IMG/VR virus record: IMGVR_UViG_3300045988_063800
Span: 1 to 64,000 of that record
Direction: 5' to 3' (one strand)
Length of the DNA: 64,000 nucleotides
Source: a virus
Below the pieces are notes generated by a model. The model saw nothing but the letters and a program-made list of their open reading frames with translations. It was not told the DNA's origin and did not search any database. This document shows positions 17,541 to 48,558 of the stretch, in pieces (within the stretch, counting starts at the first letter, position 1; every line of letters starts with the position of its first letter). The position numbers and the translations under genes were made by a program.

Positions 17541-17541
17541 A

Positions 17542-31451: not shown

Positions 31452-31549
31452 AATTAGTGAACTTTTATGAATGTTAATAATGTTAGTAAAATCGGTTGGT
31501 GGGAAAAGCAAATCCCCACCATGTTTAGGCGTTGTGGTGCGTCATGTGT

Positions 31550-32653
31550 TTACGAAGCTTCGGTCTGCGGTCTCTCGGGGATAACGAGCTGTTCGTCCTC
31601 GGGAATATCGAAGTCGTCGAAGTCATCGAAGTTGTTTGTCGGGTTGTTGTAAGCCTCGTTCTCTGCCGCCGCTCTTTCGGCACCAGGAATCATAAACGCT
31701 TGGAACGCTGCGGGCGACAGCTGGAGTCGCGTCACGATGTATCGCTGCGTCATGGAAACATCCGGGGCGTTGCCCGTGAAGTGACCCATCATCAACGCTA
31801 TCTGCTCCAACGGCACGTTCTTCAACGACAGGTTGGTTGCGAACGAGCGTCTACCCGTATGTGTTGATACAAACTTCCACTTCGGGCCTGTCTGCTCGCG
31901 ACCTGCCTGGTACACCTTAACCTGCTGGTCGATACCGCATGATTGGCAGAAGAAACGTATCGCGTCGTTGTAGGAAGGAACTGCAAGTGACTGCGGTTCG
32001 ATAGGTGAAGACGGAACGAGATACTCTCTTAGCCACGGGTGCACGGGAACCGTCACCTCATGGTTGGTCTTCTTTGATACATAAGTCAGGGTACGACCAT
32101 CAGAAGAGAGGTTTACGGGCGAGAGGCGCAGGCAGTCGGAGAAACGTGCTCCGCAAAGGCATTCAAGCATGAAGATGCGCTTTGCATGCCGTCTGCGTAC
32201 TGTCTTAGGGCGATACTCGTGTATCTTGCGTATCTCCTCGTCGGTGAGAAACACGGACTGTACCACCACCTTCTTTGCACGCAGCACGCGCGCGTAGGAC
32301 ATGGAAGGAATGTCTTTCGACTCTGCGTTCTCACGGATGATTGCGTTAATCTCTGCGCATATTGTGCGCACGGAGTTCGGCGCATAGGAAGCGTCCAGCT
32401 CTTCCTTCACGTCTCGCAGATTGTCGTCCGTGATGTCCTCCCACAATGGTGCGCGACCGATAACCTGCTTGAATTTATCAATGATCTTCACGCGTCCAGG
32501 GTGTTTCCAGATGAAAGCACCATAGAACTCGTGACGCCAACGATAGCCGTCATAAGTCGCAAAGTAACCTTTTCGGATTGCGCTGGAGTAGGTTTTCTGC
32601 TGCTCGGGAGTGAGCAGGTCCATCCAGCGTCTTGTGCTAAGTAGCTGTGTCAT
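31550..32653 (-). CDS. second tyrosine recombinase/integrase
   Basis: 367 aa. It carries CGARFSD (Arg), STHTGRRSFAT (HxxR), MMGH and QRY (Tyr), plus an acidic C-tail DDFDDFDIPEDE. Its start lies in a junction cassette. Confidence 0.88.
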   Translation of the reverse strand: MTQLLSTRRWMDLLTPEQQKTYSSAIRKGYFATYDGYRWRHEFYGAFIWKHPGRVKIIDKFKQVIGRAPLWEDITDDNLRDVKEELDASYAPNSVRTICAEINAIIRENAESKDIPSMSYARVLRAKKVVVQSVFLTDEEIRKIHEYRPKTVRRRHAKRIFMLECLCGARFSDCLRLSPVNLSSDGRTLTYVSKKTNHEVTVPVHPWLREYLVPSSPIEPQSLAVPSYNDAIRFFCQSCGIDQQVKVYQAGREQTGPKWKFVSTHTGRRSFATNLSLKNVPLEQIALMMGHFTGNAPDVSMTQRYIVTRLQLSPAAFQAFMIPGAERAAAENEAYNNPTNNFDDFDDFDIPEDEQLVIPERPQTEAS

Positions 32654-32785
32654 AATTCTTGAAATTTAGTGCGCCTGCAACGCAAAGTTAATGTTATTTA
32701 TAATATTACTTCGGTATGGGCGCAGTGGTTTTACAATAATTAATGAATTAAATGGTTAAATTGCGACCCTCGGCGAGGGTCTGTT

Positions 32786-33142
32786 TTAGGCGTTGTCACT
32801 TGGCTGATTATCGGATACGGGAGGTATGAGCGAACTTGTATCCACTTTGGCGAACTCAATGATATTGTATATGTTCAACCATTGATAGGCGAAGTCCTTG
32901 AGGGGTGTGCCCTCCTCTATCGCCATCTTCACCAAATCGAAGTCGTCAGGACACAGGTCTTCGTATATTCCGTATGGGGACAATGCGTCGGAGTAGTCTA
33001 TTTCAAGCCACTCCAAACGAGTCAGAAACTTGTCGTAGGTATCAATCTTTCCGTTGGCGGCATTGATATATAGGTCGTAGACCCGCTTTGCAAAGTCCTT
33101 GCGGATGCCGTCTATCTGCTCTTGTTCCTTGTTGTTGGGCAT
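32786..33142 (-). CDS. hypothetical protein
   Basis: 118-aa track ORF. The stop lies in a GCC TAA box. Confidence 0.55.
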   Translation of the reverse strand: MPNNKEQEQIDGIRKDFAKRVYDLYINAANGKIDTYDKFLTRLEWLEIDYSDALSPYGIYEDLCPDDFDLVKMAIEEGTPLKDFAYQWLNIYNIIEFAKVDTSSLIPPVSDNQPSDNA

Positions 33143-33183
33143 TTTGTATCGCTTGACCGTGTTGCGTAGGGCTTGGTTAATGT

Positions 33184-33621
33184 TTAGACGAGGGTGATGT
33201 CGTAAGTTGGCACTCCTAAAACTCTGCGTTTTCTTCCAGCAATGAACCCTGCCATTTTAAGAAGTGCTACGGCATTGGTCAGATACGGCTCGTCCACGAT
33301 AAAAAACGGGGAGCTGAAGCCTATAGCGGTACTATAACCAAAGCGACAATCCAAATAGTCAGGAAGGTCGTAATAGAAGGTTTTCCTTCCGTCGCTCCAT
33401 GTCTCGCTGGAGCTGTATTGCGTACAATCTGAAAAACCACATTTGGGCGTGCCTTCATAATCCACGAAACGAACTCCGAATATGACTAATTTCGCAGACA
33501 CATCGTTCTTCCGAAAGAACTCCACGACTGCGTTCTGAAATCCCGCCGTATCGAACGGTGGCGCTTTGAACCCTTTCTCCTTGAGAATGTCCTGCGCTCT
33601 TACAAATTTTGTTACTGCCAT
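33184..33621 (-). CDS. hypothetical protein
   Basis: 145-aa track ORF. A junction cassette lies upstream (33610-33675). Confidence 0.55.
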   Translation of the reverse strand: MAVTKFVRAQDILKEKGFKAPPFDTAGFQNAVVEFFRKNDVSAKLVIFGVRFVDYEGTPKCGFSDCTQYSSSETWSDGRKTFYYDLPDYLDCRFGYSTAIGFSSPFFIVDEPYLTNAVALLKMAGFIAGRKRRVLGVPTYDITLV

Positions 33622-33671
33622 AATTTAATCTATTTTATTGGTTAATAGCGACCTCTACAATACGAGGTCGT

Positions 33672-34645
33672 TAAGGCAAACATTGCTGATTGGTTCGTGA
33701 TTGGTTTGCGATTGGTTTATAATGCAAAGGTAGTGATTTTATCGCTATTTCACGAATAAATGCAGCACTTTTTAAAGTAATGACGTGCCTGTAGCCGTGT
33801 TGCGTGACTGTAAGGATTTGATATGTACCGGCTGAGAAATCGGCAGGGAGCCAGGTGTCAACCTGGTGGACGGCGGATGATACGAAGCCGGTATCATTAA
33901 AGTCGGCTGCACGGCACGTCATAAGGAACCGCAAAATTCCGTTGGTTGTATTGGGGGCACGATTGGAGACGGGTGCATTGCTGTAGGTGTTTGATTTAGC
34001 CCAGTAGTGGGGCTGGGTGCGCCGGTTGTTGCAACCGGCACCAACCCAGCCCTTATATACTGGGATATAAACGTTGTCTCCCCATCGCGCCCGATTTAGG
34101 CTTGCAATGGCTTGTCTTCCACAAGGAGTGTGGCGCATGGCTGTAAGGGATTGGTCTAAACACAAGCCGGGACGCGGCGGGCGGGATGAGAATCCAAGTT
34201 CCGCCGCGTGTGAGGCTTGGTGCAGCAAATGTACTCCTCCGGGGAAGACGAACGTCTGCGCTGACGTGAGTGGGCTTGAACGATGGCTGTGGCACATGGA
34301 TATAAACGAGCGATGTAGGTCAGGTTTCTCGATGACGACGTCGATAGGTTCGTATCGACGTCGTCATCGTTAGCAACCTGAGCGCTAAACGGATGCCATT
34401 CTTCAAGCCGAGGGCGGTGTGCGCCGCCTTGCACAGGCATTACGCCGTGGAACATTTCTGTAAGGTTTTGATTGTACCAGCCTTAGGATACGGGATACAC
34501 TCTGGATTGTCCAGAGGAAATCCCGTATCTTTGAGGCGGGTATATAAATGTGGCGTCCTGCTCTGCGCAGTTCCGTGTTCTCGGAAATTCATATAGGTTT
34601 GGTTGTGGATGCAGCGTTTGGACTGCATCCGTTTTTAGGCGTTTG
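33672..34645 (-). ncRNA. candidate large structured non-coding RNA immediately 3' of the reverse transcriptase
   Basis: 974 nt, visibly GC-richer than its flanks, with only mutually overlapping junk ORFs in 3 frames. Perfect hairpins lie at 34331-34368 (16 bp), 34487-34529 (10+7 bp), 34010-34052 (nested 8+8 bp) and 33851-33866. Confidence 0.35.
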
Positions 34646-35914
34646 TCAGAGATTGGCTACAAGTGTGTCGTATGCAGCTCGCGAGGTCAGCAATGCGTTG
34701 CGCATGAGACCGAGTGACATAAAGCCGTCAATACGCCCGGGTGTCTTCGCTCTGTTCGTTGTGACATTCTTTCCTCGTCCTCGTGAGATACATCCCACCT
34801 TCTGCTCCCTGGCAAAGCCAAGACCTCCGATGCGTCGCTTGCCGGTTGCGGTAGCACGCAGAGCGTCAAGAATGAACGTAGACAGCGTGTCGATGTCCTC
34901 CTTTACGTTGATTATCGGGAGAACCTGCGTTGCCCATGAGTGACCGTCATAACCCTTGTAGAGGTATCGGTTAATCATGTTTACCGATGTCGTGAGCGTT
35001 GCACCCCGTCTACAGCACGAACGCGACTCTATCTCCTTCTGAAACGTCTTGATGCGTGTAGAGGAAAGCGATATGCTGCTGCCCTTGATTGAATAGCCGA
35101 GGAACTTGAACCAATGGTTTGCGTCAAGATACTCCACCTTCTTCGGGTTGAGCTTCATCTGCATATTGCCAAGCTCCTCCGTAAGAATGTGCATCGCCTT
35201 AACGTAGTCACTACCGACATAAAGCATATCGTCGGAGTAGCGGGCGTAATAGCCTTCGAGCTGCGATAGTTTCTCGTCGATATGATACAGGATTACGTCT
35301 GCGAGCCACGAGGCTACGGAGCAACCCTGCTTTAACGACTGATACTTCTCGTGCAGCTCACCTTCGGGAGTGAAGTACAGGTCGGAATGATAGTAGTCGC
35401 GAAGGACATCTATCAGAGCCGAGTGTCCGTACTTTTCCTCCACCTTGTTGAAGGCTGCGTCAACGAACCCCAACGGAACACTGTCAAAATACTTCGACAG
35501 ATCGGACTTGAAGCCGAGCACATCGGAAGTCTGCAACGCACACATACGGCGTGACACCTCCTGCACAACCCTACCGCAGCCAATTCCCTTCTGATACGAG
35601 CGACAGCTCGGATGAACCATCTCGGGCATAAGCTCGAAGAGAAGGTCGTTGGCTATGGAAAGCAGCACTCGGTCGGCAGGCTCGTTCACATACACGGTAC
35701 GGAACTCGCCGTTGTCCTTCGGTATCTGCGCTGTATGTGGCGGCATTATCTTGTACTTGCCGTCACGGATACGCTGATACATGAGTGCGCGCGCCTCGGG
35801 TTTGGTGAGCTTGTAGAGCACGCCTTTGGATATGTCCTTGACAACACCTTTGGCGATTGCGTACTGCCAGCGTTCGGGGGCGAAAAACATCTCTAAAATC
35901 TTATCTTCTTTCAT
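34646..35914 (-). CDS. reverse transcriptase, class unassigned
   Basis: 422 aa with IPKDNGEFRTVYV, ADRVLLSIANDLL, FKSDLSKYFDSVP, LKQGCSVASWLADVIL, YARYSDDMLYV and FKFLGYSI, which correspond to RT motifs 1-7. Confidence 0.9.
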   Translation of the reverse strand: MKEDKILEMFFAPERWQYAIAKGVVKDISKGVLYKLTKPEARALMYQRIRDGKYKIMPPHTAQIPKDNGEFRTVYVNEPADRVLLSIANDLLFELMPEMVHPSCRSYQKGIGCGRVVQEVSRRMCALQTSDVLGFKSDLSKYFDSVPLGFVDAAFNKVEEKYGHSALIDVLRDYYHSDLYFTPEGELHEKYQSLKQGCSVASWLADVILYHIDEKLSQLEGYYARYSDDMLYVGSDYVKAMHILTEELGNMQMKLNPKKVEYLDANHWFKFLGYSIKGSSISLSSTRIKTFQKEIESRSCCRRGATLTTSVNMINRYLYKGYDGHSWATQVLPIINVKEDIDTLSTFILDALRATATGKRRIGGLGFAREQKVGCISRGRGKNVTTNRAKTPGRIDGFMSLGLMRNALLTSRAAYDTLVANL

Positions 35915-35979
35915 AATTCTGTTGTTATTTAATGGTTTGTAAATAAGTCAAGCGGTTACGATGTGTAACCACTTGTGGT

Positions 35980-36177
35980 TTAGGCTGCGGAACGTGTCTT
36001 GTACTCCACGATGGCGGCGAACGAACCGAAGCCGTTGCGCCATCTTGATTTCTCGTACTTCCATCCGTTTTCGCGAAGATACTTACGGCAGGCATAGCGT
36101 GACATAGGCATTGATTTGTCCAACGCTGCGTTCACACCCTCGTACTCGAAGGTGTAGAAAACAATTCTGTACTTCAT
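35980..36177 (-). CDS. small hypothetical protein (65 aa) between the structured element and the RT
   Basis: Track ORF 35980-36186. The ATG at 36177 lies in a cassette context (MKYRIVFYTFEYEG...). The stop lies in a GCC TAA box. Confidence 0.45.
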   Translation of the reverse strand: MKYRIVFYTFEYEGVNAALDKSMPMSRYACRKYLRENGWKYEKSRWRNGFGSFAAIVEYKTRSAA

Positions 36178-36237
36178 AATAAACAAATTTTGGTTTGATA
36201 GACTATCCGCTGCCGAACAACGGATAGGTTTAGGCTT

Positions 36238-36376
36238 GTCTGCGGCTCACGGACGGGTGCCTGTCTGTAAGCGTGTGATTTCAAAGCTTGCAAGGAAGGT
36301 CCCTTGCCTGACCGATAGGCGGGTAAGGGACCTTCTTCTGCGAAGCTTTCATAAATGATGCCGAGCCACCGCAGAC
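36238..36376 (-). ncRNA. candidate rod-like structured RNA element upstream of the RT unit
   Basis: The outer helix pairs 36238-36248 with 36363-36376. Inside it are an AAAGCTT/AAGCTTT helix and an 11-bp hairpin (36295-36305 with 36325-36335). The only ORF here is an implausible 70-aa one. Confidence 0.35.
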
Positions 36377-36404
36377 GGAACGGCAATTCCTTCTTGGCTG
36401 CGTA

Positions 36405-37397
36405 CTACTTCTTAGATGCAGGCTGTTTCTTCCACTCGGCAATCTTCTTTTCGACAGAGATGCCAGAGTCCTTGATAAGCTGCTTCATGGCACCGAGGAG
36501 TTCCCAACCTTCGAGGTTCGAGGCGAGATTCTCCATGCGTGCGAGCGACTGCTTTTCCGTGGTGCAGCCATTGAAGCGTGCGCCGTGGAACAGGATGAGG
36601 TTCTTCATCGTGAAGTACGCACCAGAACCCTTGTAGGCATCGGTGAACGCCTTTGACTGCTTGGTCTGCCAACGGAGATTGTGACGGTCACGGTTGAACG
36701 CTGCGACAGCCTTGTAGAGCTGATATGCGGACTTGGAATCGCCGATTGCTCTGATAGTCCATGCAATCGGAGCGAACACAACGTTCTCAATCTCGTCAGA
36801 GAACACGTTCTTGCCGAAGATGCGCTTGTAGAGGCGACCGCGGCATTTACGCTCCTTGATTTCCCCAACAACCTTGCGGAGGTGGTCGAGGTAGTCCTCT
36901 GCCATTTCAGTCACAACGTCCTTGTCGAACCAGCGGTTGCGCTCGCCAAACGACTCTGTGTCGCCGTGCTTGAGCATCTTATACTGCGCAAGCAACTCCT
37001 GCTCCACCATCTTCCACGAATACTCGTATCCGCGGTTCTGCAAGACCTCCGTGAAGTTGGGAGAATCCCACTTGCCCTCGTTCATCTCTCGGAGCATGTG
37101 GAACATCTGCGCCATAACCCAACGGCGATAGAGCTTGCCGTGTGCGATGTAGCGTCCTTCCATGATGCGAGAGAAAACAGGGTCGTCGTCAAGTACCTGT
37201 GTCGGAACGCCGTCCTTGACACGGACAATCATCTCTTCGCCCATAGGGAAGTAGTTGGAAACATCCACGCCCGCAGCCTTGAGTGCTTCGATACGTGCCT
37301 GTGCCGACTTCTTGCTGGGTTTCTGCTGACCTGCGCCGTTTGCGTTTGCTACCTCGTTGATAGTGAACTCACCTGAAATCATTACATTTCTTTTCAT
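36405..37397 (-). CDS. hypothetical protein (330 aa)
   Basis: Track ORF with the start in a junction cassette. No motif recognised. Confidence 0.65.
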   Translation of the reverse strand: MKRNVMISGEFTINEVANANGAGQQKPSKKSAQARIEALKAAGVDVSNYFPMGEEMIVRVKDGVPTQVLDDDPVFSRIMEGRYIAHGKLYRRWVMAQMFHMLREMNEGKWDSPNFTEVLQNRGYEYSWKMVEQELLAQYKMLKHGDTESFGERNRWFDKDVVTEMAEDYLDHLRKVVGEIKERKCRGRLYKRIFGKNVFSDEIENVVFAPIAWTIRAIGDSKSAYQLYKAVAAFNRDRHNLRWQTKQSKAFTDAYKGSGAYFTMKNLILFHGARFNGCTTEKQSLARMENLASNLEGWELLGAMKQLIKDSGISVEKKIAEWKKQPASKK

Positions 37398-37507
37398 AAT
37401 TCTTTTGTTTTTAAATTGTTAATAAAATGGTTAAAAATGTGAGTGAGATTTGCATCCCACTCTGATTTAGGCGGTTTATAGCAAATGCTACCATCTGCTA
37501 CCAAATG

Positions 37508-37963
37508 CTACGATTTGCTTGGTTCAACCCATGAGCGCAGGATAATCAAGTCCTTGTCGTTGGGAGATTGGTAGAACCAGCTGCCCCATTCCTTCTGCCA
37601 AGTAATGTAGCCTTGGATGATGTATGTAAGCAATCTGAGTTCTAACTTGCATCTCGCCACCTCACGTTGCTCACCATACATCATATCTTCGTCTGAGAGT
37701 TCTTTCTCAGACAAAGCCTTAAAGTAGCAACGTCTGTGTGACTCGGAACGCTCAGTAGGAACGGAGTGCTTATAATTCCTGTATGCCTTTTCTATTCCGT
37801 TCAACGCAACAGACAAAGGCAAACTACCATGTTGTTTCCAGTCTCTTGCTGTGATTTCCTCGCTAACAACAACCTCTCCGTTCACTCTACATGTTCTGTT
37901 TTGGAAGTTGATAGTGAACTTCGCACCATTCTCAACTTCATTGATAATCTCGTTGCATGTCAT
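37508..37963 (-). CDS. hypothetical protein
   Basis: 151-aa track ORF. Confidence 0.6.
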   Translation of the reverse strand: MTCNEIINEVENGAKFTINFQNRTCRVNGEVVVSEEITARDWKQHGSLPLSVALNGIEKAYRNYKHSVPTERSESHRRCYFKALSEKELSDEDMMYGEQREVARCKLELRLLTYIIQGYITWQKEWGSWFYQSPNDKDLIILRSWVEPSKS

Positions 37964-37991
37964 ACTCTTAATGATTTTGGTTAATAAATGT

Positions 37992-38128
37992 GGCGTGCCG
38001 AAGACCTCGGCGCATATCTGTACGATGCTGATTTGAAACAGTATGTGATGATCACGAGTCCACTCGCGTCAGTGGGAGACTCGTGATCAGTCACTACTGT
38101 TGAAATAAATATGGTCTTCCGGCACGCC
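37992..38128 (-). ncRNA. expanded 137-nt structured element occupying the hairpin slot of a junction cassette
   Basis: The outer ~15-bp stem pairs 37992-38006 with 38113-38128. The inner perfect 12-bp stem pairs 38049-38060 with 38078-38089 and encloses CACT/AGTG. Confidence 0.35.
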
Positions 38129-38151
38129 TTTTTAGGCTGCGCTGCCGTAGG

Positions 38152-38343
38152 TTAGCTCATGGAGCAAAAGAAGTCGTCGGGCGTGAAACACACGCCTCCG
38201 TACTCCTCTTCCACCTGCTCGTCAGACACAAGCTCGTCCGCAATGGCAAGCTCTCCGTATGACGGCTCGTAACCGAGGATGGCTTCGAGCATGGTGGATT
38301 TTAACTCTACAAGTTGTTCTCTCGATAGTTCTGATACATACAT
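38152..38343 (-). CDS. small acidic hypothetical protein
   Basis: 63-aa track ORF with a cassette start. Confidence 0.5.
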   Translation of the reverse strand: MYVSELSREQLVELKSTMLEAILGYEPSYGELAIADELVSDEQVEEEYGGVCFTPDDFFCSMS

Positions 38344-38386
38344 AATTCTAAAAGTTTTGGTTTATAGTGCCGTCTTTCGACGGCTT

Positions 38387-38671
38387 TTAGACTGTCAACC
38401 CGAGGTATTCTGATAGGGTATCTATCATAAGCTTGGTTACGCAGTCGTCATCTATGTCACTGACGTATTTGTTTACGTCACATCCATAGAGTTCTTCTCC
38501 TTCTTCGACTGCTTGCAATGCCTGTCTTGGAATGTCTCCTATAACGAAATCCAAATCAGCCTTCGTCTCGCAATCGTCAATGATACCATCTGGGATGTTG
38601 AGAAGCACGTTGTCTTTCTCATCAACGAGATGCCATTCATATTGTCCTGGAATAAATCTTACGTTGTTCAT
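38387..38671 (-). CDS. small acidic hypothetical protein
   Basis: 94-aa track ORF with a cassette start. The stop lies in GTC TAA AAG. Confidence 0.55.
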   Translation of the reverse strand: MNNVRFIPGQYEWHLVDEKDNVLLNIPDGIIDDCETKADLDFVIGDIPRQALQAVEEGEELYGCDVNKYVSDIDDDCVTKLMIDTLSEYLGLTV

Positions 38672-38721
38672 AATTCTTATGTTTTGGTTAATGTGCGCAG
38701 TTCTTAGCTGCGCTTTTTAGG

Positions 38722-38880: not shown

Positions 38881-38928
38881 ATCTATAATGTTTTGGTTAT
38901 TGGTAGGGAGATTGCTCTCCCCGTTTGG

Positions 38929-41193: not shown

Positions 41194-41240
41194 AATTCTG
41201 TAATCTGTTAGTTAGTTGCACCTCCCCAAAGGGAGGCGGT

Positions 41241-41780
41241 TTAGGCGGTAACACACTGCTGTTCGAGCACGCAGGCAATCTCCGAAAGCGTGTCTTGAAA
41301 ATTGTACTTGATGCCGAACGTTCCAAAGGCTTTAAAATACCAATCCATAAGATACGCCCTGTCCTCGTCAGCCTGTTTGCTGTCTTCCGCTGCATCCAAA
41401 CGTGCAACCATTTGGGGAAACAGACGGAAGTAGTCGTCGCCGGCATACTCCGAACTCCAATATGTGCCCGTGATGTGAGCGAGATAGTCTTCCTCGATGT
41501 TGGCGAAATTGCCGTCCATGCGATGATTTTGCATGTGGAGATATTCCTTCATCTCTCTGTTCGCTTTCATAGTAAAATCCCAAGCGAGAGATTGAATATT
41601 GAAACCCTCGAAATCGACAAGGTATTCCTCTATGTCCTCAGAGTTCTCGTAGTCTTCCAAACACTCACGATAAAGAGCCTCTATCGCTTTGGCAAAATTC
41701 TCGACACCGATGTAGTCGGCTACCTTCTCGACAACCTCGCCTTTGTTGTTCATAACAACTTCTACAATATTCTTTTCCAT
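41241..41780 (-). CDS. hypothetical acidic protein
   Basis: 179-aa track ORF with a cassette start. Confidence 0.6.
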   Translation of the reverse strand: MEKNIVEVVMNNKGEVVEKVADYIGVENFAKAIEALYRECLEDYENSEDIEEYLVDFEGFNIQSLAWDFTMKANREMKEYLHMQNHRMDGNFANIEEDYLAHITGTYWSSEYAGDDYFRLFPQMVARLDAAEDSKQADEDRAYLMDWYFKAFGTFGIKYNFQDTLSEIACVLEQQCVTA

Positions 41781-41837
41781 AATTCGTTGTTTTTAGGTTA
41801 TACTTGCACTCTCCACAGGGGAGAGTCTTTAGGCTAA

Positions 41838-42113
41838 TCAGAACCACCAAGGAATAAAACATGCTATGTTTTTAGCCTCCTTGTGGGCTATTCTTCTCGT
41901 CTTCTTGTCAACAGAGCCATCAAGACATTGCGACATAGCACGTTTGAATAATGCGCCCATCACCCAATAAATAGGAATGTAATTATTAGGGCATTTTTCA
42001 ACGTCAATACAGCCTGAATGTAAAATCTCGCAAATACACTTGTCAAAAGTATCTTTGTCTTCAAATTTACGAAGAACTTCATGGCACTTGTCTAAAAAAT
42101 CTTTTTCTGTCAT
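41838..42113 (-). CDS. hypothetical protein
   Basis: 91-aa track ORF with a cassette start. Confidence 0.55.
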   Translation of the reverse strand: MTEKDFLDKCHEVLRKFEDKDTFDKCICEILHSGCIDVEKCPNNYIPIYWVMGALFKRAMSQCLDGSVDKKTRRIAHKEAKNIACFIPWWF

Positions 42114-42170
42114 AATTCTAAATGTTGGTTAATAGAAATCCCCACCCGTGATAGTGAGGATTGATTTAGG

Positions 42171-42422
42171 CTAACCGAACATGAGCGAGTCAATCATTTT
42201 GTAGAATGTGCCCTCGTCGGTGCTGTTGTAGAGATAGTGTACAAACTTGCGTCTGTCCTCCATTCTCAAGACTCTGTAATAATGCTTGAAGTCGGAGAAA
42301 TTGCCGTTTATCCACGACTCGTGCATTATCTGCATCATTTCGTACTCGCCTGCCACCTCGTAGGACTTAGCCTGCTGCGCAAGCGTTCTGCTTCTCCTTT
42401 CGGATGCTCTTTTTGTTGCCAT
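42171..42422 (-). CDS. hypothetical protein
   Basis: 83-aa track ORF with a cassette start. Confidence 0.5.
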   Translation of the reverse strand: MATKRASERRSRTLAQQAKSYEVAGEYEMMQIMHESWINGNFSDFKHYYRVLRMEDRRKFVHYLYNSTDEGTFYKMIDSLMFG

Positions 42423-42486
42423 AATTCAGAAATTAATTTGGTTAAACGTTGTTCTGTGCAGATAGGCTGCACAGATTTGTTGAGGC

Positions 42487-42855
42487 TCAATAGCCACGAT
42501 ACAGGATTCTCTTGACAAGCGCATACTCGTAACCTCCGTCCTGCCCTACGCAGTAGGTAAAGCTCGGCTTGTTATTACGCAGCTCAACCCACAGACGGGA
42601 AAGTATGCCACAGCTCTCGATTTTGCCGTACTTCATGTTGTGGAATACCTCGTCGTACTTTCTTTTCTGACAGCCAAGTGCTTGACAGAAGCCGTCAGAC
42701 AGCTCACGCAGAGCGCTGTCGGTAAGCTCGAACGGACACCTCTTATAATGCTTGTTGTTGTAGATTTGTCCGCTCAAAAAATCGTTCATCGTGAATTGTC
42801 CTGCATCGGCAGCTCTAAGCAAGCCGACGAGTGTTTTGTAAGTTCTTTTCTTCAT
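42487..42855 (-). CDS. hypothetical protein
   Basis: 122-aa track ORF with a cassette start. Confidence 0.55.
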   Translation of the reverse strand: MKKRTYKTLVGLLRAADAGQFTMNDFLSGQIYNNKHYKRCPFELTDSALRELSDGFCQALGCQKRKYDEVFHNMKYGKIESCGILSRLWVELRNNKPSFTYCVGQDGGYEYALVKRILYRGY

Positions 42856-42908
42856 AATCTTATTTTTGTTGGTTGGTAATGTAGGCGCACGGAATTTGTG
42901 CGCCCCGT

Positions 42909-43076
42909 TTAGGACTCTTCCACAGATAAAGGCTCACAATCTACACTTCCGACCATGTTGGCGTTGCCGTCAAGCCATGCTTTGTAAGCTATTTCTTTCG
43001 CTTCTTCCTCGTTGTCGGCTTGCACTTCCACAAAACCATAAGAGGTTTCTTTCAGGTTTACACAATATGTTTTCAT
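42909..43076 (-). CDS. small acidic protein (55 aa)
   Basis: Track ORF 42909-43112. The cassette ATG is at 43076 (MKTYCVNLKE). Confidence 0.45.
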   Translation of the reverse strand: MKTYCVNLKETSYGFVEVQADNEEEAKEIAYKAWLDGNANMVGSVDCEPLSVEES

Positions 43077-43135
43077 AATTTTCAATTTGTTGGTTGTAGT
43101 TCCTGCGTGCAATCGTCACGCAGGATTTTAAGGCG

Positions 43136-43528
43136 TTAGCGACGGAAACGGCTCATATCCACGCCGTAAATCTTCGCAAGGCGCAGAATACCATTGGCGA
43201 TGCGCTCAAACCATGTACGTACAAACTGCGAGGTTCTTGCGTCTGTTCTGCAATAACCCCACTCCGTGCCAACCTTGGCAATGTCATAGTTGGTAAAGGC
43301 TACGTTCACGGTAGAGCAAAGACCGGCAATCCATTCAGTCAGCAAATCAAGAGCGGACATTCTGCGTCTGTCATCTTTAAATTTCTCTACATAGAACGTG
43401 TCAAGCGCAAACTCAATGCGTTCCTTGTCAGACATAGACTCTACATCTACATCATCGGAAGATATGGAGTCAAGGATGTAAGCATACATTTTGCCGTTCA
43501 CTTTGTAATCTCGTGGGTGCTTTTTCAT
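43136..43528 (-). CDS. hypothetical protein
   Basis: 130-aa track ORF with a cassette start. Confidence 0.6.
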   Translation of the reverse strand: MKKHPRDYKVNGKMYAYILDSISSDDVDVESMSDKERIEFALDTFYVEKFKDDRRRMSALDLLTEWIAGLCSTVNVAFTNYDIAKVGTEWGYCRTDARTSQFVRTWFERIANGILRLAKIYGVDMSRFRR

Positions 43529-43592
43529 AATCCTAAAATTTTAAATGGTTGATAAAATGAACCCGTGACAAAACGTAACGGGTTGTTCAAAC

Positions 43593-43775
43593 TCAATCGT
43601 GATAAGCAATGGCTACAATCTCAACCATAGCGTCGTGAAAATCATTCTCAGATTTCGGATCATTGTAGTCGGTCATACGTGCGTTGTGCATCTTGCGAGC
43701 TGCAATCTTTGCCTTGTTTATCTGATACATCAACGAACGTTCAAAATTCTTGTCGCAATTTCTGTCTCTTAGCAT
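43593..43775 (-). CDS. small hypothetical protein
   Basis: 60-aa track ORF with a cassette start. Confidence 0.45.
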   Translation of the reverse strand: MLRDRNCDKNFERSLMYQINKAKIAARKMHNARMTDYNDPKSENDFHDAMVEIVAIAYHD

Positions 43776-43829
43776 AATTCAATGATTTATTTGGTTAATA
43801 GTAGCGGAGTTGTATCTCCGCTGTTTAGG

Positions 43830-43994
43830 CTATCTGCCGAAGTATTTGCGCTCGAAATCTTCGTAACTCTCGCAGTTGAAGACAACCGCAACGCATTTCA
43901 AACCACGGGCAATTAAACTCTGTTTGACTTCTTTTGTAAGTTGTTCGCCTGTGTACACCTCGAAAGGAGGGAACACGAAATAATTCTGTGTCAT
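43830..43994 (-). CDS. small hypothetical protein (54 aa)
   Basis: Hand-translated as MTQNYFVFPPFEVYTGEQLTKEVKQSLIARGLKCVAVVFNCESYEDFERKYFGR, with a TAG stop in a TAGCCTAAA box. Confidence 0.45.
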   Translation of the reverse strand: MTQNYFVFPPFEVYTGEQLTKEVKQSLIARGLKCVAVVFNCESYEDFERKYFGR

Positions 43995-44054
43995 AATAAT
44001 TCTGTTTGGTTAATGGCAGACGGCACGAATTATCGTACCGCCCGATTTTAGGCT

Positions 44055-44222
44055 CTACGGCTCGATGCGTGAAAATACGGCGTAGGTATGTCTGCCTGTC
44101 TCGCTCTTCTTCATAAGCTCCGCAAACTTCACTGCGTCCTCAAGGGTTGCAAACTCGCGCACGACTTTCGGTGTAAAACTCGGGTAAAACTCAAGCACTA
44201 CAAAATTTTTCTCTGTGTTCAT
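44055..44222 (-). CDS. small hypothetical protein (55 aa)
   Basis: Track ORF 44055-44255. The cassette ATG is at 44222 (MNTEKNFVVLEF). Confidence 0.45.
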   Translation of the reverse strand: MNTEKNFVVLEFYPSFTPKVVREFATLEDAVKFAELMKKSETGRHTYAVFSRIEP

Positions 44223-44269
44223 AATTCTTTGATTTGGTTGGTTAATAGACCCCACAATCGTGGGGATTT

Positions 44270-44560
44270 TTAGGCTGCGGACTTATCTTTTACGTACTTC
44301 GCAAGGCTCTCGAACGTTTCGTCGTTCTCCTCTGCATCGAAAAAATCGTAAAATCTGAAAGTCACGACGCGGCAATCCCTGCTCTCGCCCTTCTTGTCGC
44401 TCGTGCTGCAAACATCTACATAAAAGCTGTAGCCGGAGGAGTAAAACTCAATGCACATGCCTACATGATTGTTAAAATACATATCACGCTGCATCTTCTG
44501 AACCTTAGGGAGAATTTCCTTTGCGAGTCTTCTCGCCTCTGTGAGTCTTTTTTCTGTCAT
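44270..44560 (-). CDS. hypothetical protein
   Basis: 96-aa track ORF with a cassette start. The stop is GCC TAA. Confidence 0.55.
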   Translation of the reverse strand: MTEKRLTEARRLAKEILPKVQKMQRDMYFNNHVGMCIEFYSSGYSFYVDVCSTSDKKGESRDCRVVTFRFYDFFDAEENDETFESLAKYVKDKSAA

Positions 44561-44611
44561 AATTCTGTGATTTAATTGGTTAATACTGCGGGAGGCTCAG
44601 AACCTCCCTTT

Positions 44612-44929
44612 TTAGACCAGTAGCTCAAACCCTAAAATGCTATTGACAAACTTTGCGTCGCCTGTACAAAAGCGTCCTGGGCGTGTAAAATTACCGCCTT
44701 TCTTGTAGTAGATGCGTGTGGCGTAAAATCCAGCGTTCACGCTGTATCTCACATCGTACACCGACGTTCTCGTCAAGATGTAATGCTTGTGTTCGTACAG
44801 CCATTGCGCCTCTGCTTTGTGTACGGATATTCTCCCGAGCCTTACCTGTAGCTCAGGATTCAACCGAGCTTCGTTGAGAGCGCAACAATCGCACACGTCA
44901 TCGAATCGTTTTGCGTTCAAATTAATCAT
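44612..44929 (-). CDS. hypothetical protein
   Basis: 105-aa track ORF. Confidence 0.55.
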   Translation of the reverse strand: MINLNAKRFDDVCDCCALNEARLNPELQVRLGRISVHKAEAQWLYEHKHYILTRTSVYDVRYSVNAGFYATRIYYKKGGNFTRPGRFCTGDAKFVNSILGFELLV

Positions 44930-44982
44930 ATCATTATAAATTTATTGGTTAATAGTCCGTGCGCATGATTGCGCACAGGGTT

Positions 44983-45117
44983 TTAGACAATGTAAGCCAC
45001 GGTAAGAAATTTGCCGTCGTAACCAAGGAACTCAACGTGTGTGTAGATTTCCTGCATCTTCGCGAATACGCTCTCCATGAACAGAGAACCCTCGCACTTA
45101 ATTCTTCGTGTTGCCAT
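44983..45117 (-). CDS. small hypothetical protein (44 aa)
   Basis: Hand-translated as MATRRIKCEGSLFMESVFAKMQEIYTHVEFLGYDGKFLTVAYIV, with a cassette start. Confidence 0.4.
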   Translation of the reverse strand: MATRRIKCEGSLFMESVFAKMQEIYTHVEFLGYDGKFLTVAYIV

Positions 45118-45186
45118 AATTCATTTGTTTTTATTAGTTATTTATCGTACTGCCTAATTTGCAGGCAGTTTTTTAGGCTGAATTTT

Positions 45187-45381
45187 TCAGAACACAAAAT
45201 CCACGTAAACAAGGCGTGAACCTTTGAACTCGCTCCAATAATTCACATTGTCGTACTTGTACGCCTCGAATTTTTGGGAACTTCTGTTGTACTCGTCACG
45301 CACCCAAACGGGAGCGGACTCCGAATTTGCCAAGCGGAAAAACTCGCCACGCTTGACTCTGCGCATTTCTATCTGTCTCAT
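45187..45381 (-). CDS. small hypothetical protein (64 aa)
   Basis: The cassette ATG at 45381 (MRQIEMRRVKRGEFF...) lies inside track ORF 45187-45612. Confidence 0.45.
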   Translation of the reverse strand: MRQIEMRRVKRGEFFRLANSESAPVWVRDEYNRSSQKFEAYKYDNVNYWSEFKGSRLVYVDFVF

Positions 45382-45463
45382 AATTCTGTAAGGTTGATTT
45401 ATCGTACTGCCCCATATAGCAGGGCAGCATTTAGGCTGAAAGTTTCCAAGCACAATTTTCGTA

Positions 45464-45712
45464 CTAATCACTCTCCACGTTGCAGCCGAGCAGGAATTTT
45501 TCCAAGCGCAGCGTACTGCGATACAGCTCAACGCTGAACCAACGACCGTTTTTCGTACTCGTCCAAAGATACCACACAAACAGAGCGTAGAAAATTCCAA
45601 GCACATTTCCAATTATCGTACCGCTTACAAGCAACACGCACGGGAGCAGCTGAATAATTCCAAGCACAATTATCGTACTTGAATAGATAATCTGTCTTTT
45701 CTTCATAATCAT
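45464..45712 (-). CDS. small membrane protein with internally repeated TM modules
   Basis: 82-aa track ORF. STIIVLGII and GTIIGNVLGIF are encoded by the repeated DNA motif TTCCAAGCACA..TCGTAC. Confidence 0.5.
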   Translation of the reverse strand: MIMKKRQIIYSSTIIVLGIIQLLPCVLLVSGTIIGNVLGIFYALFVWYLWTSTKNGRWFSVELYRSTLRLEKFLLGCNVESD

Positions 45713-45760
45713 AGAATTTTATTGGTTAATAGTTGGTAGCCTGTCGGCTACCATTTTAGG

Positions 45761-46027
45761 CTAATCGCTCACGTTGAAGAACAACAGCTCCGTGTCCTCG
45801 AATATATCAAGGCACAAATCAGGCTTGAGCCAACGGAAATAATAGAGCGTATCGCCACGCTTCTTGTACACGGCTATCCAAACGCCTGCGGGCAGCGTGC
45901 GGTTTTCGTTCGTTCCGTAAAACTCTCCTGTATTCACAGGTTCGAGGTGCATGTAGATATTCCACTGAGTGTTATCCAATCCCTCACGATTGATTGCGTC
46001 GAGCACTTTGAATGTCTTTAATGTCAT
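45761..46027 (-). CDS. hypothetical protein
   Basis: 88-aa track ORF with a cassette start. Confidence 0.55.
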   Translation of the reverse strand: MTLKTFKVLDAINREGLDNTQWNIYMHLEPVNTGEFYGTNENRTLPAGVWIAVYKKRGDTLYYFRWLKPDLCLDIFEDTELLFFNVSD

Positions 46028-46085
46028 AATCCTAAATTTATTGGTTATTGTTCCCTACAATCGTAGGGAGATTTTAAGGCGTTAG

Positions 46086-46229
46086 TCACTCTATCCACGT
46101 GCCGCCGTGAAACGTCAGGTTGTGTCCGTTCCACGTTCCGCGCCAGCGTCCGTCTTTCAATTCTGTTACGTCTACTTCTGCGTACCGCGTTGAGCCGTCG
46201 CAAAGAATAATCATTTCTTTCTCGTTCAT
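46086..46229 (-). CDS. small hypothetical protein (47 aa); first ORF of the cassette array
   Basis: Track ORF 46086-46268. The cassette ATG is at 46229 (MNEKEMIILCDG). Confidence 0.4.
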   Translation of the reverse strand: MNEKEMIILCDGSTRYAEVDVTELKDGRWRGTWNGHNLTFHGGTWIE

Positions 46230-46605
46230 AATTCTAAAATTTGTTGGTTTGTAGTAGAGCAGCCACAAGGACTGCCCTATTTGCCTGAGACGTGCATCTT
46301 GGCACCGTGTTTGTCTTTATCGTCCTTACTCACGGCTCACATCTCACGGATTTCACGCATCCGTTACGCCCTGTTTCTTTGCAGCTGACAGGTAACTGCA
46401 TTTCCTTTTGGTATGCCCTTTTGCGTATAGCTCACTGCAACCACCACGTTGCAGACGATTTAGCGAGTAACCAGCTCGCACGCTCGTGACACGTTAGAAT
46501 ATGAATTATGAATAACTCCCAAAGTTTCAAATTTTGCAGTTCGAGAAATTCCCGCCTATTTCCTTACAGGAAAAATCTCGCTTGCAAAATCCCATAACAA
46601 AGGGC

Positions 46606-46628
46606 GTGACACGTCCGACACGTGTCAC
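46606..46628. promoter_or_regulatory. operator-like perfect inverted repeat GTGACACGT-N5-ACGTGTCAC
   Basis: It lies in the 600-bp non-coding gap upstream of the cassette array. A further GTGACACGT half-site is at 46486-46494. Confidence 0.4.
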
Positions 46629-46826
46629 CATTTATTAAAATAAATCTGTAGATCGATTGCTTTTAGATTTTAGCACGTTGCACAGAAAAAGCACAACGAG
46701 GAACACCCACACACCACGATGAGGTATCTAAAAACGTGTGGGAAAATAAGAAAACAGAGAAAAACGGTGGGGAAAAATAAGGACACAAAAAACCGCTTGC
46801 AACTCAAAATGAATTGCAAGAAAAAT

Positions 46827-46859
46827 CCAGGTGGAGCGGCTGTTTGCCGCTCCACTTGG
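46827..46859 (-). terminator. rho-independent terminator after 46878-47477
   Basis: On the minus strand: CCAAGTGGAGCGGC-AAACA-GCCGCTCCACCTGG, followed by ATTTTTCTT. Confidence 0.6.
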
Positions 46860-46877
46860 ATCACGTCCGGCGCCGGC

Positions 46878-47477
46878 TTATAGCTTAAGCATTCCGGCGA
46901 GGTACATTTGTTCGGCTTGCTCCTTTGTTATACCGAACTTTGCCACGGCTGCGTTTAGTGCACGTTCTTTGCGTGCCAACTCATTAGAGCGTTTCGCATA
47001 CTGCTGCATGAATGTGAACGCCTTGACAACAAAAGAGTTAACCCTGTTAGCGGTGTTCACCATGTTCGGCAACTTGTCAACAAGCCCTAGACCATACAGG
47101 CGGCGATAGTTGAACCATGTTGCCGTGTTGGTTCGTTGTGCGACTTCTGCAACCGCAACCGCAACCGCTTTTTTAAACGCCTTGAGCGTTAGTTTGTTGG
47201 CGTTGGCTGTTTTCAGCTGGTACGCCTCGAAACGTTCTTTAGCTTTCTCGTGTTCGGTTCTGAGTTGCTTGTAGCGGTCGTCGCTTTCGTTTGCGTCGTC
47301 TAAAACTTCTTTTAGACAGGTTGCGAGTTCTTTCGTCTCGTCTTCTGCAACCGCTTCCACCCACGGCAAAAACATCTTAGTGTAACTTGGATTTTCCTCC
47401 TCCTTTGCCAACTTCTGGGCGTTCTCAACTGTGTTGATTAATTCAGAGTTTCTGTTTTCTACTTTAGTTGCTTTCAT
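46878..47477 (-). CDS. hypothetical coiled-coil protein
   Basis: 199-aa track ORF with a cassette-type start (CATAATTCT) and its own terminator. Confidence 0.6.
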   Translation of the reverse strand: MKATKVENRNSELINTVENAQKLAKEEENPSYTKMFLPWVEAVAEDETKELATCLKEVLDDANESDDRYKQLRTEHEKAKERFEAYQLKTANANKLTLKAFKKAVAVAVAEVAQRTNTATWFNYRRLYGLGLVDKLPNMVNTANRVNSFVVKAFTFMQQYAKRSNELARKERALNAAVAKFGITKEQAEQMYLAGMLKL

Positions 47478-48558
47478 AATTCTATATATTTAAATTGGTG
47501 AATAAATTCTAATTACTTCTAAAGTCTTTGCAGCAACCAAAGGAAACGACTAATTTTGCAGTGGTGAATAAATTAGAGCGTTCCACGCTTTAGTTGCTGG
47601 CGGCGTGGTCTACGTTGGTAGGCTGCGCCGCTTTAGTGTATCACTATTTTAAAGACCGCCACGCCACAGGGTTATTACCTTCGCCCTGTGCGTTGTCGTG
47701 GGTGTTTCTCCCTATCGACGCTACAAAGGTACGAAGATTTTCGACCAAAAGCAAATATATTAACACATATAACATTACTATAACTGACTGATTTTCAGCG
47801 TGTTATACATTTTAACAACGGTTAATTCTTATAATATAGCACAATATTTGGTTAATTTACGTTTAACAAATTCAGAAACAAGCCGAATTTAAATGTATTT
47901 AACAAGTCGTGAAACATTATATTTATACACATTAGAAATTAATATAAATGTATAAAGTGCTGATTTTCAAGCGGTTACAACTTTATATAATATTAGGCAA
48001 GCGTGAAACATAAAATGTACGTTTAACACTTATTAACGTTATATTATTGCATATAATATAAAGAAAACAGGGTGCACCCCCCCTGAGAATTGGCTATTTG
48101 CCAAAATAGTCACCTCTTTTAAAAATTTTTTCTTCCGATTTTTGGTTAAGTGTAAACTTATGTTCCTATTTGTTAAAAACTGTAAACTTGTATATTTATG
48201 TATATTCAGTTTTATTAACTTCCTGGCGGTCGAAACCGGGAAGTGGAACGTCTGTCTGTCGCCGAATAGCTATGTATATTTATTATACACTCGATGTAGG
48301 ATAAAAATGCACCAAAAACCTCGTATTTATGGGAGTTTGTGTATGATTGTAGAACTTATTTTGTACCTTCGTTTCAGAGGCATGTGAGGATAGGGGTTGA
48401 GAACCTTATCATACACTACCTACACAAACCCCGTGTTTATCTGGGATTTGGCTGCATTTGGAACCTACATTAATCGTTCATTTTCTGTTAATCGGAATTG
48501 ACCGTCTCTACAGTCTGGTTTTATCAGATGCAAAAGTAGTAAAATTAATTGTAAAAGT

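Follow-up and report, generated by a model that had tools for sequence, protein, structure and literature searches.

A standard linker between the small genes of a phage array

What joins the small genes of a long, one-directional phage gene block, and why should the junctions between them look alike? We addressed this question for the first 64,000 nt of IMG/VR record IMGVR_UViG_3300045988_063800 (positions 1-64,000; hereafter "the window"), where an array of cassette-linked small genes spans 31449..47477 on the minus strand, from a first ATG at 47477 to a last one at 31451. We think it probable that this block is a variable accessory array of a temperate Prevotellaceae phage and that its linker combines a stop signal, an RNA hairpin, and a translation start independent of Shine-Dalgarno (SD) sequences, while doubling as a homology patch for gene exchange.

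Read on the minus strand, the 90 nt upstream of 33 starts follow the order (A/T)AGCCTAAA(A), a short GC-rich hairpin, (C)TATTAACCAA(A), a spacer, and AGAATT-ATG. The first element (the stop box) can also be written (A)GCCTAAA and the element after the hairpin (the box) (T)ATTAACCAA, and the spacer comprises 6-12 A/T-rich, nearly G-free nucleotides. A first-pass annotation made from the sequence had listed these 33 starts as sharing one four-part layout. All of its coordinates are minus-strand ATGs, and the layout is present upstream of about 30 of them. Among the departures, the first gene at 47477 has only a box variant without stop box or real hairpin, the hairpins at 40590 and 37963 are weak, 31451, 45381, and 45117 carry box variants, and some genes of the block have no cassette (33142, 34297).

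In the window, AACCAA-N6-14-ATTATG has 19 matches against 0.13 expected, every one of them a minus-strand match within 33.6-46.3 kb, and 5 exact copies of the full three-box pattern stand against an expectation of 0.00. GCCTAAA is present in 21 copies on the minus strand of the block and in 5 copies on both strands of the rest of the window. A weight matrix of the box yields 32 minus-strand hits, 24 of them at most 40 nt upstream of a listed ATG, compared to 5.65 hits on both strands combined in the shuffled control; spurious plus-strand hits come from a 27-nt periodic repeat at 18374-18806 in a collagen-like tail-fibre gene (18089-19375, minus strand; Collagen, DUF7666). The first-pass annotation had allowed for boxes that are no commoner at junctions than within genes, but the matches concentrate upstream of the listed ATGs. 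The cassette is real, strand-specific, and located at junctions far beyond chance, and it was not found at the window genes outside the block, i.e., those for structural proteins (6.8-25 kb), for replication (49-58 kb), and for the terminase and portal proteins. Single boxes outside the array, which had been reported at 63915-63924 and 47847-47856, and a related one before the plus-strand gene at 3467, are indeed present.

Scanning IMG/VR for the exact three-box pattern returned at least 118 contigs of 42-90 kb. The 118 loci listed contain 908 cassettes, 543 of them unique, in arrays that always have a single orientation. Across about 1 Mb of these loci, TTAACCAA has 656 sense copies and 3 antisense ones, and 531 of the former lie at most 25 nt upstream of a called ATG. 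The stop box is the most degenerate of the four cassette parts because an exact CCTAAA is found in only 156 of 587 unique junctions of relatives. It was correctly described as supplying stop codons in two frames: GCC-TAA closes the open reading frames (ORFs) 44270, 39751, 35980, 41241, and 32786, and TAG-CCT-AAA closes 39211, 45761, 42171, 39521, 38722, and 43830. The junctions of the window are as follows (all on the minus strand; hairpin values in kcal/mol).

46227..46285, minus: junction cassette of ATG 46229; hairpin 46255-46279 (-13.5, one G.T); box CTACAAACCAACAA
46025..46088, minus: junction cassette of ATG 46027; hairpin 46052-46069 (-10.0)
45704..45763, minus: junction cassette of ATG 45706; hairpin 45734-45753 (-13.9); TAG-CCT-AAA stop box
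45379..45466, minus: junction cassette of ATG 45381; hairpin 45407-45427 (-10.6); variant box with TACGATAAAT
45115..45189, minus: junction cassette of ATG 45117; hairpin 45149-45169 (-10.2); variant box with TACGATAAAT
44927..44985, minus: junction cassette of ATG 44929; hairpin 44959-44976 (-10.3)
44558..44614, minus: junction cassette of ATG 44560; hairpin 44590-44608 (-11.6)
44220..44272, minus: junction cassette of ATG 44222; hairpin 44250-44265 (-10.1); exact full pattern
43992..44057, minus: junction cassette of ATG 43994; hairpin 44021-44040 (-11.8, one T.G)
43773..43832, minus: junction cassette of ATG 43775; hairpin 43803-43822 (-10.9); exact full pattern
43526..43595, minus: junction cassette of ATG 43528; hairpin 43560-43584 (-9.9)
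43074..43138, minus: junction cassette of ATG 43076; hairpin 43101-43125 (-15.0); gene absent in L039, L074, and L025
42853..42911, minus: junction cassette of ATG 42855; hairpin 42884-42904 (-12.3)
42420..42489, minus: junction cassette of ATG 42422; hairpin 42453-42475 (-12.8)
42111..42173, minus: junction cassette of ATG 42113; hairpin 42137-42162 (-12.4, one T.G); exact full pattern
41778..41840, minus: junction cassette of ATG 41780; hairpin 41808-41826 (-9.1)
41191..41243, minus: junction cassette of ATG 41193; hairpin 41221-41236 (-10.7); gene absent in L039, replaced in L025
40988..41040, minus: junction cassette of ATG 40990; hairpin 41018-41033 (-8.7, GAAA loop)
40588..40675, minus: atypical junction of ATG 40590; box ATATTAACCC, without convincing hairpin
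39701..39753, minus: junction cassette of ATG 39703; hairpin 39727-39746 (-11.7)
39469..39523, minus: junction cassette of ATG 39471; hairpin 39497-39513 (-10.1)
39154..39213, minus: junction cassette of ATG 39156; hairpin 39185-39200 (-9.1, GCAA loop); exact full pattern
38878..38931, minus: junction cassette of ATG 38880; hairpin 38906-38921 (-9.1); gene in the window only, replaced in L074, absent in L039
38669..38724, minus: junction cassette of ATG 38671; hairpin 38695-38713 (-8.5); exact full pattern
38341..38389, minus: junction cassette of ATG 38343; hairpin 38369-38384 (-10.4, GAAA loop)
37961..38154, minus: long junction of ATG 37963; stop box, extra long palindrome, 5-bp hairpin 37997-38011 (-6.3), and box
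37395..37510, minus: junction of ATG 37397; hairpin 37441-37462 (-11.8, one G.T) and two box-like copies
36175..36407, minus: junction of ATG 36177; hairpin 36203-36227 (-14.4, one T.G)
35912..35982, minus: junction cassette before the reverse transcriptase gene, ATG 35914; hairpin 35949-35975 (-14.7, one T.G)
33619..33673, minus: junction cassette of ATG 33621; hairpin 33649-33670 (-12.7); box score 19.4
32651..32700, minus: start of the recombinase gene, ATG 32653; own host-type -7 element TAACTTTG (32683-32690) and CAAGAATT-ATG context, without box; translation initiation region (TIR) in the 5' untranslated region (UTR)
31449..31552, minus: degenerate junction of ATG 31451; stop box, hairpin 31497-31521 (-13.8), and box variant TTATTAACATT

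The extra palindrome before ATG 37963 is long and near-perfect (GTGACTGATCACGAGTC...GACTCGTGATCATCAC, 38040-38095, minus strand) and lies inside an unusually long gap of 190 nt.

The hairpin is a sense-strand structure

The hairpin had been described as differing in sequence from copy to copy, and at 29 window junctions we found 6-10 Watson-Crick pairs with -8.5 to -15 kcal/mol and no two sequences alike. Perfect stems of 6 bp or more are seen in 61.5% of the unique junctions, compared to 6% of shuffles and 11% of coding 60-mers, and with one mismatch allowed at least 6 pairs are reached in 457 of 543 unique junctions (about 84%). The loops are mostly of 4 nt, with GNRA in 59 of 163 such loops, and the hairpin ends 5-10 nt before AACCAA.

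Internal mismatches that are flanked by pairs are G.T or T.G in 126 cases and A.C or C.A in 9; counted by independent family (107 hairpin families), G.U is seen in 30 and A.C in 5. This excess argues for selection of the fold on the sense strand because a fold of the opposite strand or a symmetrical cruciform would lack such a bias. At orthologous junctions, 97% of cells are paired, compared to 45% in a control with the partner slid by one column, and 36 pair columns show compensatory double changes while 35 show one-sided changes that preserve pairing. Judged by this comparative evidence, the hairpin is a selected sense-strand structure, most simply one in the mRNA.

Read in sense, an A-run precedes the stem and yCyWTTAACC follows it, with no U-tract. 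Only 2 of about 30 cassette hairpins pass a scan for a hairpin plus T-tract in sense, and about nine pass on the plus strand because of the A-run 5' of the stem. The cassettes thus do not combine a GC-rich hairpin with an immediate U-tract on the transcribed strand, as a canonical intrinsic terminator does. Their lack of such a tail is meaningful because canonical hairpin/T-tract sites exist in the same phage, for example at 46855-46831, 46820-46796, and 48085-48068. The whole window has no Rfam 15 match at gathering score, and no tRNAs were found in it.

From the box to the start codon

When aligned on the ATG, the 33 window starts carry A at -14 (24 starts), -13 (28), -12 (31), -6 (24), and -3 (31) as well as T at -2 (29) and -1 (all 33), and G occurs at most twice at any position from -25 to -6, nine of which have none. 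Ribosome profiling of Flavobacterium johnsoniae identified A at -3, -6, -12, and -13 (with enrichment from -14 to -11) together with low structure as positive determinants of initiation, and Bacteroidia ignore SD sequences at this step (PMC6847099). The cassette sequence has A at -3, -6, -12, and -13, no SD, and an unstructured start region, as expected of a TIR of this kind. Its box can be refined to yTAtTAACCAAwww with an almost invariant AACCAA, which lies 11-17 nt before the ATG (mode 12-13).

In sense, the non-conserved positions contain 8.4% G and 32% C between stem and box and 4.1% G and 11.5% C between box and -7, compared to 24.6% G and 20.4% C in coding DNA. Such strand-asymmetric avoidance of G points to a constraint at the RNA level that keeps the RNA unpaired and is not expected of a duplex promoter. 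A translation signal, mentioned only in passing by the first-pass annotation, is therefore better supported than its promoter reading, by the adenine positions as well as by the depletion of G, and we read the box as part of the message rather than as a promoter. In L254, a comparable leader context is found at the host gene relA. Complementarity between the box and 16S rRNA, which we take to be at most 6 nt, is at chance level, and an anti-box small RNA was dropped as a candidate since the one minus-strand UUGGUUAA near 28700 sits in an AT-rich spacer of no particular note. Several non-array genes at 8900-17600 (minus strand; e.g., 9175, 9998, 11473, 15365, and 15603) are preceded by GGAGG-like sequences, although the hosts are thought to ignore SD signals.

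Promoters and transcription of the array

That the cassette does not fit the Bacteroides promoter consensus had been noted before, and the -7 element TAHHTTTG is indeed rare, with hits in 8 of 525 short cassette junctions; between 33.7 and 47.4 kb no junction of the window has one. Host-type promoters (TAnnTTTG) lie upstream of the integrase and terminase genes. Cassette-type starts that do have a canonical -7 element nearby always have it upstream of the box, 8-13 nt before the AACCAA core. This is the case for recombinase family 41 in several lineages (TATCTTTG-N8-AACCAA, with 26-34 nt from G to ATG) and for several genes in L251, L252, and L254. Because transcription starts about 5 nt after the final G of the -7 element (PMC6847099), the box would open a 5' UTR of about 20-28 nt, and the mode of 5' UTR length in Bacteroides thetaiotaomicron is 23 nt (PMC7366714). 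We thus part with the earlier suggestion of a phage-specific promoter, against which stand the lack of a host-type promoter in the cassette, the avoidance of G, the adenine positions, and the location of the box downstream of -7 elements. Two features mark the beginning of the array.

47478..47766, minus: array head; host-type -7 element TATATTTG (47752-47759), conserved leader of about 270 nt, TIR box variant TTCACCAAT, no hairpin
46796..46855, minus: two canonical terminator-like sites (hairpin plus T-tract; 46855-46831 and 46820-46796) after the first gene, in contrast to the cassette hairpins

The leader (47478-47760, minus strand) shows high conservation across six loci and a predicted structure, with 2 compensatory pairs in five sequences that are too similar to each other, and could be an antitermination or regulatory RNA. 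After the terminators follows an ORF-poor spacer of about 550 nt (region 46230-46877, minus strand) that is conserved in six loci as well and contains a perfect palindrome, GTGACACGTGTCGGACGTGTCAC, at 46606-46628. No host promoter is recognisable in this spacer or between 46.8 and 33.7 kb.

Gene turnover at the cassettes

The array is a hyperplastic accessory region whose gene families are mosaic between relatives. The window block and the 118 IMG/VR loci, 119 sources in all, yielded 2,305 called ORFs, and sorting these into families revealed a conserved gene order peppered with presence/absence and replacement of single genes. Gain and loss bounded by cassettes, which the first-pass annotation had proposed to look for, is evident from 189 non-redundant events (70 indels and 119 replacements) in which homology most often ends at the ATG, the stop box, or the box. 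Their left breakpoints peak at +2/+3 of the ATG and their right breakpoints twice, once around the stop codon (-7 to +2) and once ahead of the next ATG (-34 to -18), so that the exchanged unit is either a bare ORF or an ORF with its stop box and hairpin.

As an example, the 43076 gene (55 aa) is present in the window and absent from L039, L074, and L025, where the flanks are homologous at 90-96% identity and overlap by about 30 nt that correspond to the box-to-ATG segment. At 43994, 38880, and 41193, relatives have unrelated ORFs, and homology ends at the ATG to restart at the stop box. Many replacements swap precisely the stretch from ATG to stop box, and the "plug-in" design that had been suggested for the array is apt in this respect. 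The presence of several joints instead of one fixed point fits homologous exchange at short conserved patches.

As to the cargo, the array has a G+C content of 0.43-0.52, and among its ten larger products scanned, eight have no PHROG match, two match families of unknown function only, and none matches an immunity family. The arrays of L252 and L254 contain N6_Mtase, DpnD-PcfM, MutS_I, ANT, and Rha-domain genes in cassette context, which hints that part of the cargo may be anti-restriction or early genes; the "early" and "anti-defence" roles earlier suggested for the small genes are guesses.

A working model and its alternatives

In the model that we favour, the 3' half of the cassette (yTATTAACCAA, an A/T-rich and G-free spacer, and AGAATT-AUG) would act as an idealised SD-independent start for Bacteroidia ribosomes: about 28 nt free of structure, with adenines set at -12 to -14, -6, and -3. 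The GC-rich hairpin would separate this landing pad from the preceding coding sequence and probably has a second role, that of protecting or marking where the upstream cistron ends, be it as a stabiliser, a pause, or a weak attenuator, while the (T)AGCCTAAA box would end the upstream ORF in two frames. Array genes would be fed by read-through from upstream promoters such as TATATTTG at 47759. The short sequences shared by the flanks of each ORF would serve as homology patches through which single ORFs are cleanly gained, lost, or exchanged when related phages recombine, and an incoming ORF would be expressed at once thanks to the linker.

Several points weigh against this model. Genes from 46229 to 33184 must, as far as the sequence can tell, rely on antitermination or on a promoter type that we do not recognise, and polycistronic transcription across about 30 hairpins is assumed. 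Boxes without an ATG lie in promoter-like regions (47847-47856 and 63915-63924), and the near-invariant AACC core, at about 2 bits per position, exceeds what a generic A-rich ribosome pad needs, which leaves room for a specific reader of this core (protein, RNA, or RNA polymerase). Homology ends found by BLAST run through shared sequence and therefore locate crossovers only to within each conserved patch, and repeated gene conversion between cassettes rather than function could explain part of the conservation.

Some of these points are what would be expected if each gene were its own unit with a very short leader, the hairpin being a terminator and the ATTAACCAAA box a promoter for a phage-specific or modified RNA polymerase or sigma factor. 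T4 phages offer a precedent (PMC2839356), the hairpins have the size and stability of terminators, the core is near-invariant, box copies without ATG occur in two regulatory regions, and no host promoter can be recognised from 46.8 to 33.7 kb despite two canonical terminators after the first gene. We nevertheless find this rather unlikely: about 40 window proteins scanned (of about 130 called ORFs) include no match to an RNA polymerase or sigma factor, the hairpins are not followed by a sense U-tract, and the box lies downstream of the -7 element where a canonical one exists. The avoidance of G with C kept on both sides of the box implies a constraint on RNA, adenines occupy the positions of translation determinants, and in distant relatives the box decays to TTAAC(T/C)WA while GAATT-ATG is kept. 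The box upstream of the terminase gene was also considered as a conserved promoter element, but relatives have TTATCCAA, TTATACAA, or TTTTCCAA there beside a conserved TATATTTTTG; being so loosely conserved, it proves nothing. Processing or stability of RNA as the primary function is possible, if somewhat doubtful. A host endoribonuclease would then cut the long transcript at the single-stranded A/U-rich box or the A-tract, and the hairpin would cap the new 3' (or 5') end and set the half-life of the resulting monocistronic fragment, with translation signals being secondary. The sense-strand structure, the frequent GNRA or other tetraloops, the unstructured A-rich and A/U-rich segments that flank the hairpin, and its moving with the upstream ORF in indels all agree with this view, which leaves the fixed distance from box to ATG and the A-3/A-6 context unexplained but is compatible with, and not exclusive of, the combined stop, hairpin, and start function proposed above.

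Capture of genes as in integrons, with the hairpin and boxes as a folded single-strand site like attC and the co-directional tyrosine recombinase at 31550-32653 inserting and excising ORFs, would account for strand-specific folding, for ORF-sized gain and loss, and for the conservation of this recombinase (family 41) 3' of the array in all 14 loci that reach that far. In Bacteroidales, rAID-1 (recombinase-associated acquired interbacterial defence) arrays likewise comprise co-directional genes, up to 31 of them, with repetitive sequences in between and a XerD-like recombinase (10.1101/471110). However, the recombinase scores only 15.3 bits on the IntI model TIGR02249 (cut-off 265), which the other integrase does not hit at all; GCCTAAA shows no complementarity to TTAACCAA, and the stems are perfect or have a single G.U without the extrahelical bases of attC. 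There are three breakpoint zones, and many ORF-only replacements keep the hairpin, as a single crossover point would not allow; moreover, the pattern occurs in no Bacteroides or Parabacteroides genome among 185,579 species genomes. Since IntI, attC anatomy, and a single crossover are all lacking, we regard an integron as highly improbable. We give equally little credence to hairpins followed on the plus strand by TTTTTAGGC as intrinsic terminators that block antisense transcription into the array. The plus-strand passes of about nine hairpins and the well-conserved A-tract 5' of the stem would fit, but the A-run is also explained by the TAA-A stop context, and any sense G.U becomes an antisense A.C, so that the observed 126 versus 9 (30 versus 5 families) is the reverse of what this idea predicts and led us to reject it. 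It seems improbable, though less so, that a dedicated factor reads the UAUUAACCAA/AGAAUU module or the hairpin and actively captures or co-regulates ORFs; candidates may be the internal tyrosine recombinase, the UG27 reverse transcriptase (RT) and its partner, or else an RNA-binding protein or an antiterminator that works together with the conserved 270-nt leader. If so, the array would be a phage-borne gene capture system or regulon, be it integron-like, retro-capture, or one RNA-motif switch for about 30 genes.

Comparison with known linkers and gene arrays

The closest parallel, already drawn in the first-pass annotation, are the promoter-early stem-loops (PeSLs) of T4-like phages (Arbiol 2010, PMC2839356; Comeau 2014, PMC4122927). 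Both are short composite modules between small ORFans of a hyperplastic region that join a stem-loop to expression signals ending at the ATG, and in both, indel and replacement joints between close relatives fall inside the modules, as in the targeted homologous exchange of expression-ready genes proposed for PeSLs (PMC2839356). The parallel holds for ORFan indels and replacements with joints in the cassettes but not for a host promoter (8 of 525 junctions). As to the stem-loops, about 84% of cassettes have a stable hairpin, and only 2 of about 30 are T-tailed in sense. PeSLs have strong host sigma-70 -35/-10 promoters, an SD site, and stem-loops shown to terminate, whereas the cassette has no host-type promoter, SD, or U-tract and adds a stop box. 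Its hairpin is free in sequence while PeSL stems often read GGGG...CCCC, and its carrier is a temperate Prevotellaceae phage with an integrase instead of a T4-like myovirus. We thus read the linker as a promoter-less analogue of T4 PeSLs that is neither a member of the PeSL family nor an integron.

Start-associated sequences and their extended form (SAS/ESAS) of cluster K mycobacteriophages (Pope 2011, PMC3203893) share with the cassette an asymmetric motif in one orientation at a fixed few nt upstream of the ATG of many non-structural gene families, often preceded by an inverted repeat, specific to a phage group, and with a proposed role in translation. The SAS has an SD core 3-7 bp from the start codon, whereas the cassette motif lies at -12 to -22 and belongs to a system without SD. 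Inverted repeats of ESAS keep their sequence, and such changes as they show do not support RNA pairing; cassette stems, by contrast, covary freely, and the cassette-bounded shuffling seen here is not described for SAS. The SD-independent TIRs of Bacteroidia (Baez 2019, PMC6847099) resemble the cassette in lacking an SD, in being little structured, and in having A at -3, -6, and -11 to -14, but host TIRs are only statistically A-rich, while the cassette offers yTATTAACCAA and AGAATT-ATG in near-invariant form and about 30 times in each genome.

Integron cassettes and rAID-1 arrays (Ross 2019, 10.1101/471110) also form long one-direction arrays of small, unrelated, promoter-less ORFs with hairpin junctions and a tyrosine recombinase nearby, and rAID-1 arrays reach up to 16 kb and 31 genes in the same bacterial order (10.1101/471110). 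The rAID-1 arrays are defined by a 5' XerD-like recombinase at least 44% identical to BF9343_RS08045, a G+C content of at most 41%, and immunity genes (10.1101/471110). The array studied here is borne by a phage, has neither IntI nor attC but several breakpoint zones, and differs from rAID-1 in having its recombinase on the 3' side and a G+C content of about 43-52% instead of at most 41%.

Hairpins between the cistrons of long transcripts, such as stabilisers of the repetitive extragenic palindrome/bacterial interspersed mosaic element (REP/BIME) type and the RNase III sites of T7, shape processing and differential stability. REP elements are conserved in sequence and the RNase III sites are long enough for this enzyme, whereas cassette stems have 6-10 bp, differ in each copy, and are tied to a fixed translation start module.

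Our literature searches found no description of this cassette, and the standard linker is thus real, abundant, and apparently undescribed. It would be a second, independent case of regulatory linkers driving gene shuffling, in another phylum and with another expression logic (no promoter and no SD), and supports the idea that hyperplastic regions of phages evolve standard connectors for safe and immediately productive gene exchange. With more than 118 contigs that carry the pattern and 418 with a related terminase, the group is abundant in human gut viromes, and its accessory arrays are a large natural experiment in gene turnover in the little-studied phages of Prevotella and Segatella. The cassette is also a possible tool, as a context-insulated translation start module for Bacteroidota where SD-based tools fail, and its near-invariant AACC core may point to a new determinant of SD-less initiation.

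Phage identity, hosts, and neighbouring features

Scanning the 185,579 species genomes (one per species) revealed true arrays in Segatella copri (including the complete HDD04 chromosome), Leyella stercorea, and Prevotella. Arrays were also found in two bins labelled Acutalibacteraceae and Bacilli that are maybe mis-binned, and most other hits are single chance matches. Because of the arrays in these genomes and of L254, where a relative is integrated as a prophage adjoining host genes, the carriers are, on genomic evidence, a temperate phage group of Prevotellaceae (Segatella, Leyella).

The window encodes a large terminase (TerL), a portal protein, a D5-like primase, RtcB, a radical-SAM protein, two tyrosine recombinases, and an RT. 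Its TerL is 58% identical to that of Bacteroides LoVEphage, the nearest named relative, and its kin, and 418 IMG/VR contigs encode a related terminase. No nucleotide-level relative was found among deposited phages. LoVEphage and BS-TP1 contain no cassettes despite shared proteins. The large terminase (61589-63877, minus strand) has a 217-aa in-frame insert (residues 66-282) that splits the Walker A loop (GGSRGG | SKS) and ends with VTHN followed by Ser; it looks like a mini-intein and is missing from the otherwise 99% identical proteins of L235-L242.

The RT (34646-35914, minus strand) is a full-length match to RT_UG27 (E 2.7e-210), and the 330-aa protein encoded upstream of it (36405-37397, minus strand) matches the RT partner RTas337 (E 2e-107). 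This pair is a candidate defence system of the defence-associated RT (DRT) class inside the array and is conserved in about 45 loci. A diversity-generating retroelement was rejected, given the lack of a template/variable repeat in the window and the full-length match to RT_UG27 accompanied by RTas337. Two long imperfect palindromes, 34320-34381 (62 nt) and 34475-34542 (68 nt), follow shortly after the RT gene and may form a structured RNA linked to the RT.

The AT-rich non-coding stretch at 28250-28810 adjoins the SAM_5-type integrase gene, contains repeated ATGCGACCGCATAA-like palindromes, and may be an attP or regulatory region. A second recurrent and largely sense-only motif, (G)GCAG-TACGATAAT, was seen 344 times in sense and 41 times in antisense in loci L001-L118; it sits in hairpin loops, just after hairpins, or within small ORFs, and is found in the window at about 44030, 45160, and 45410 and in 45230-45620.

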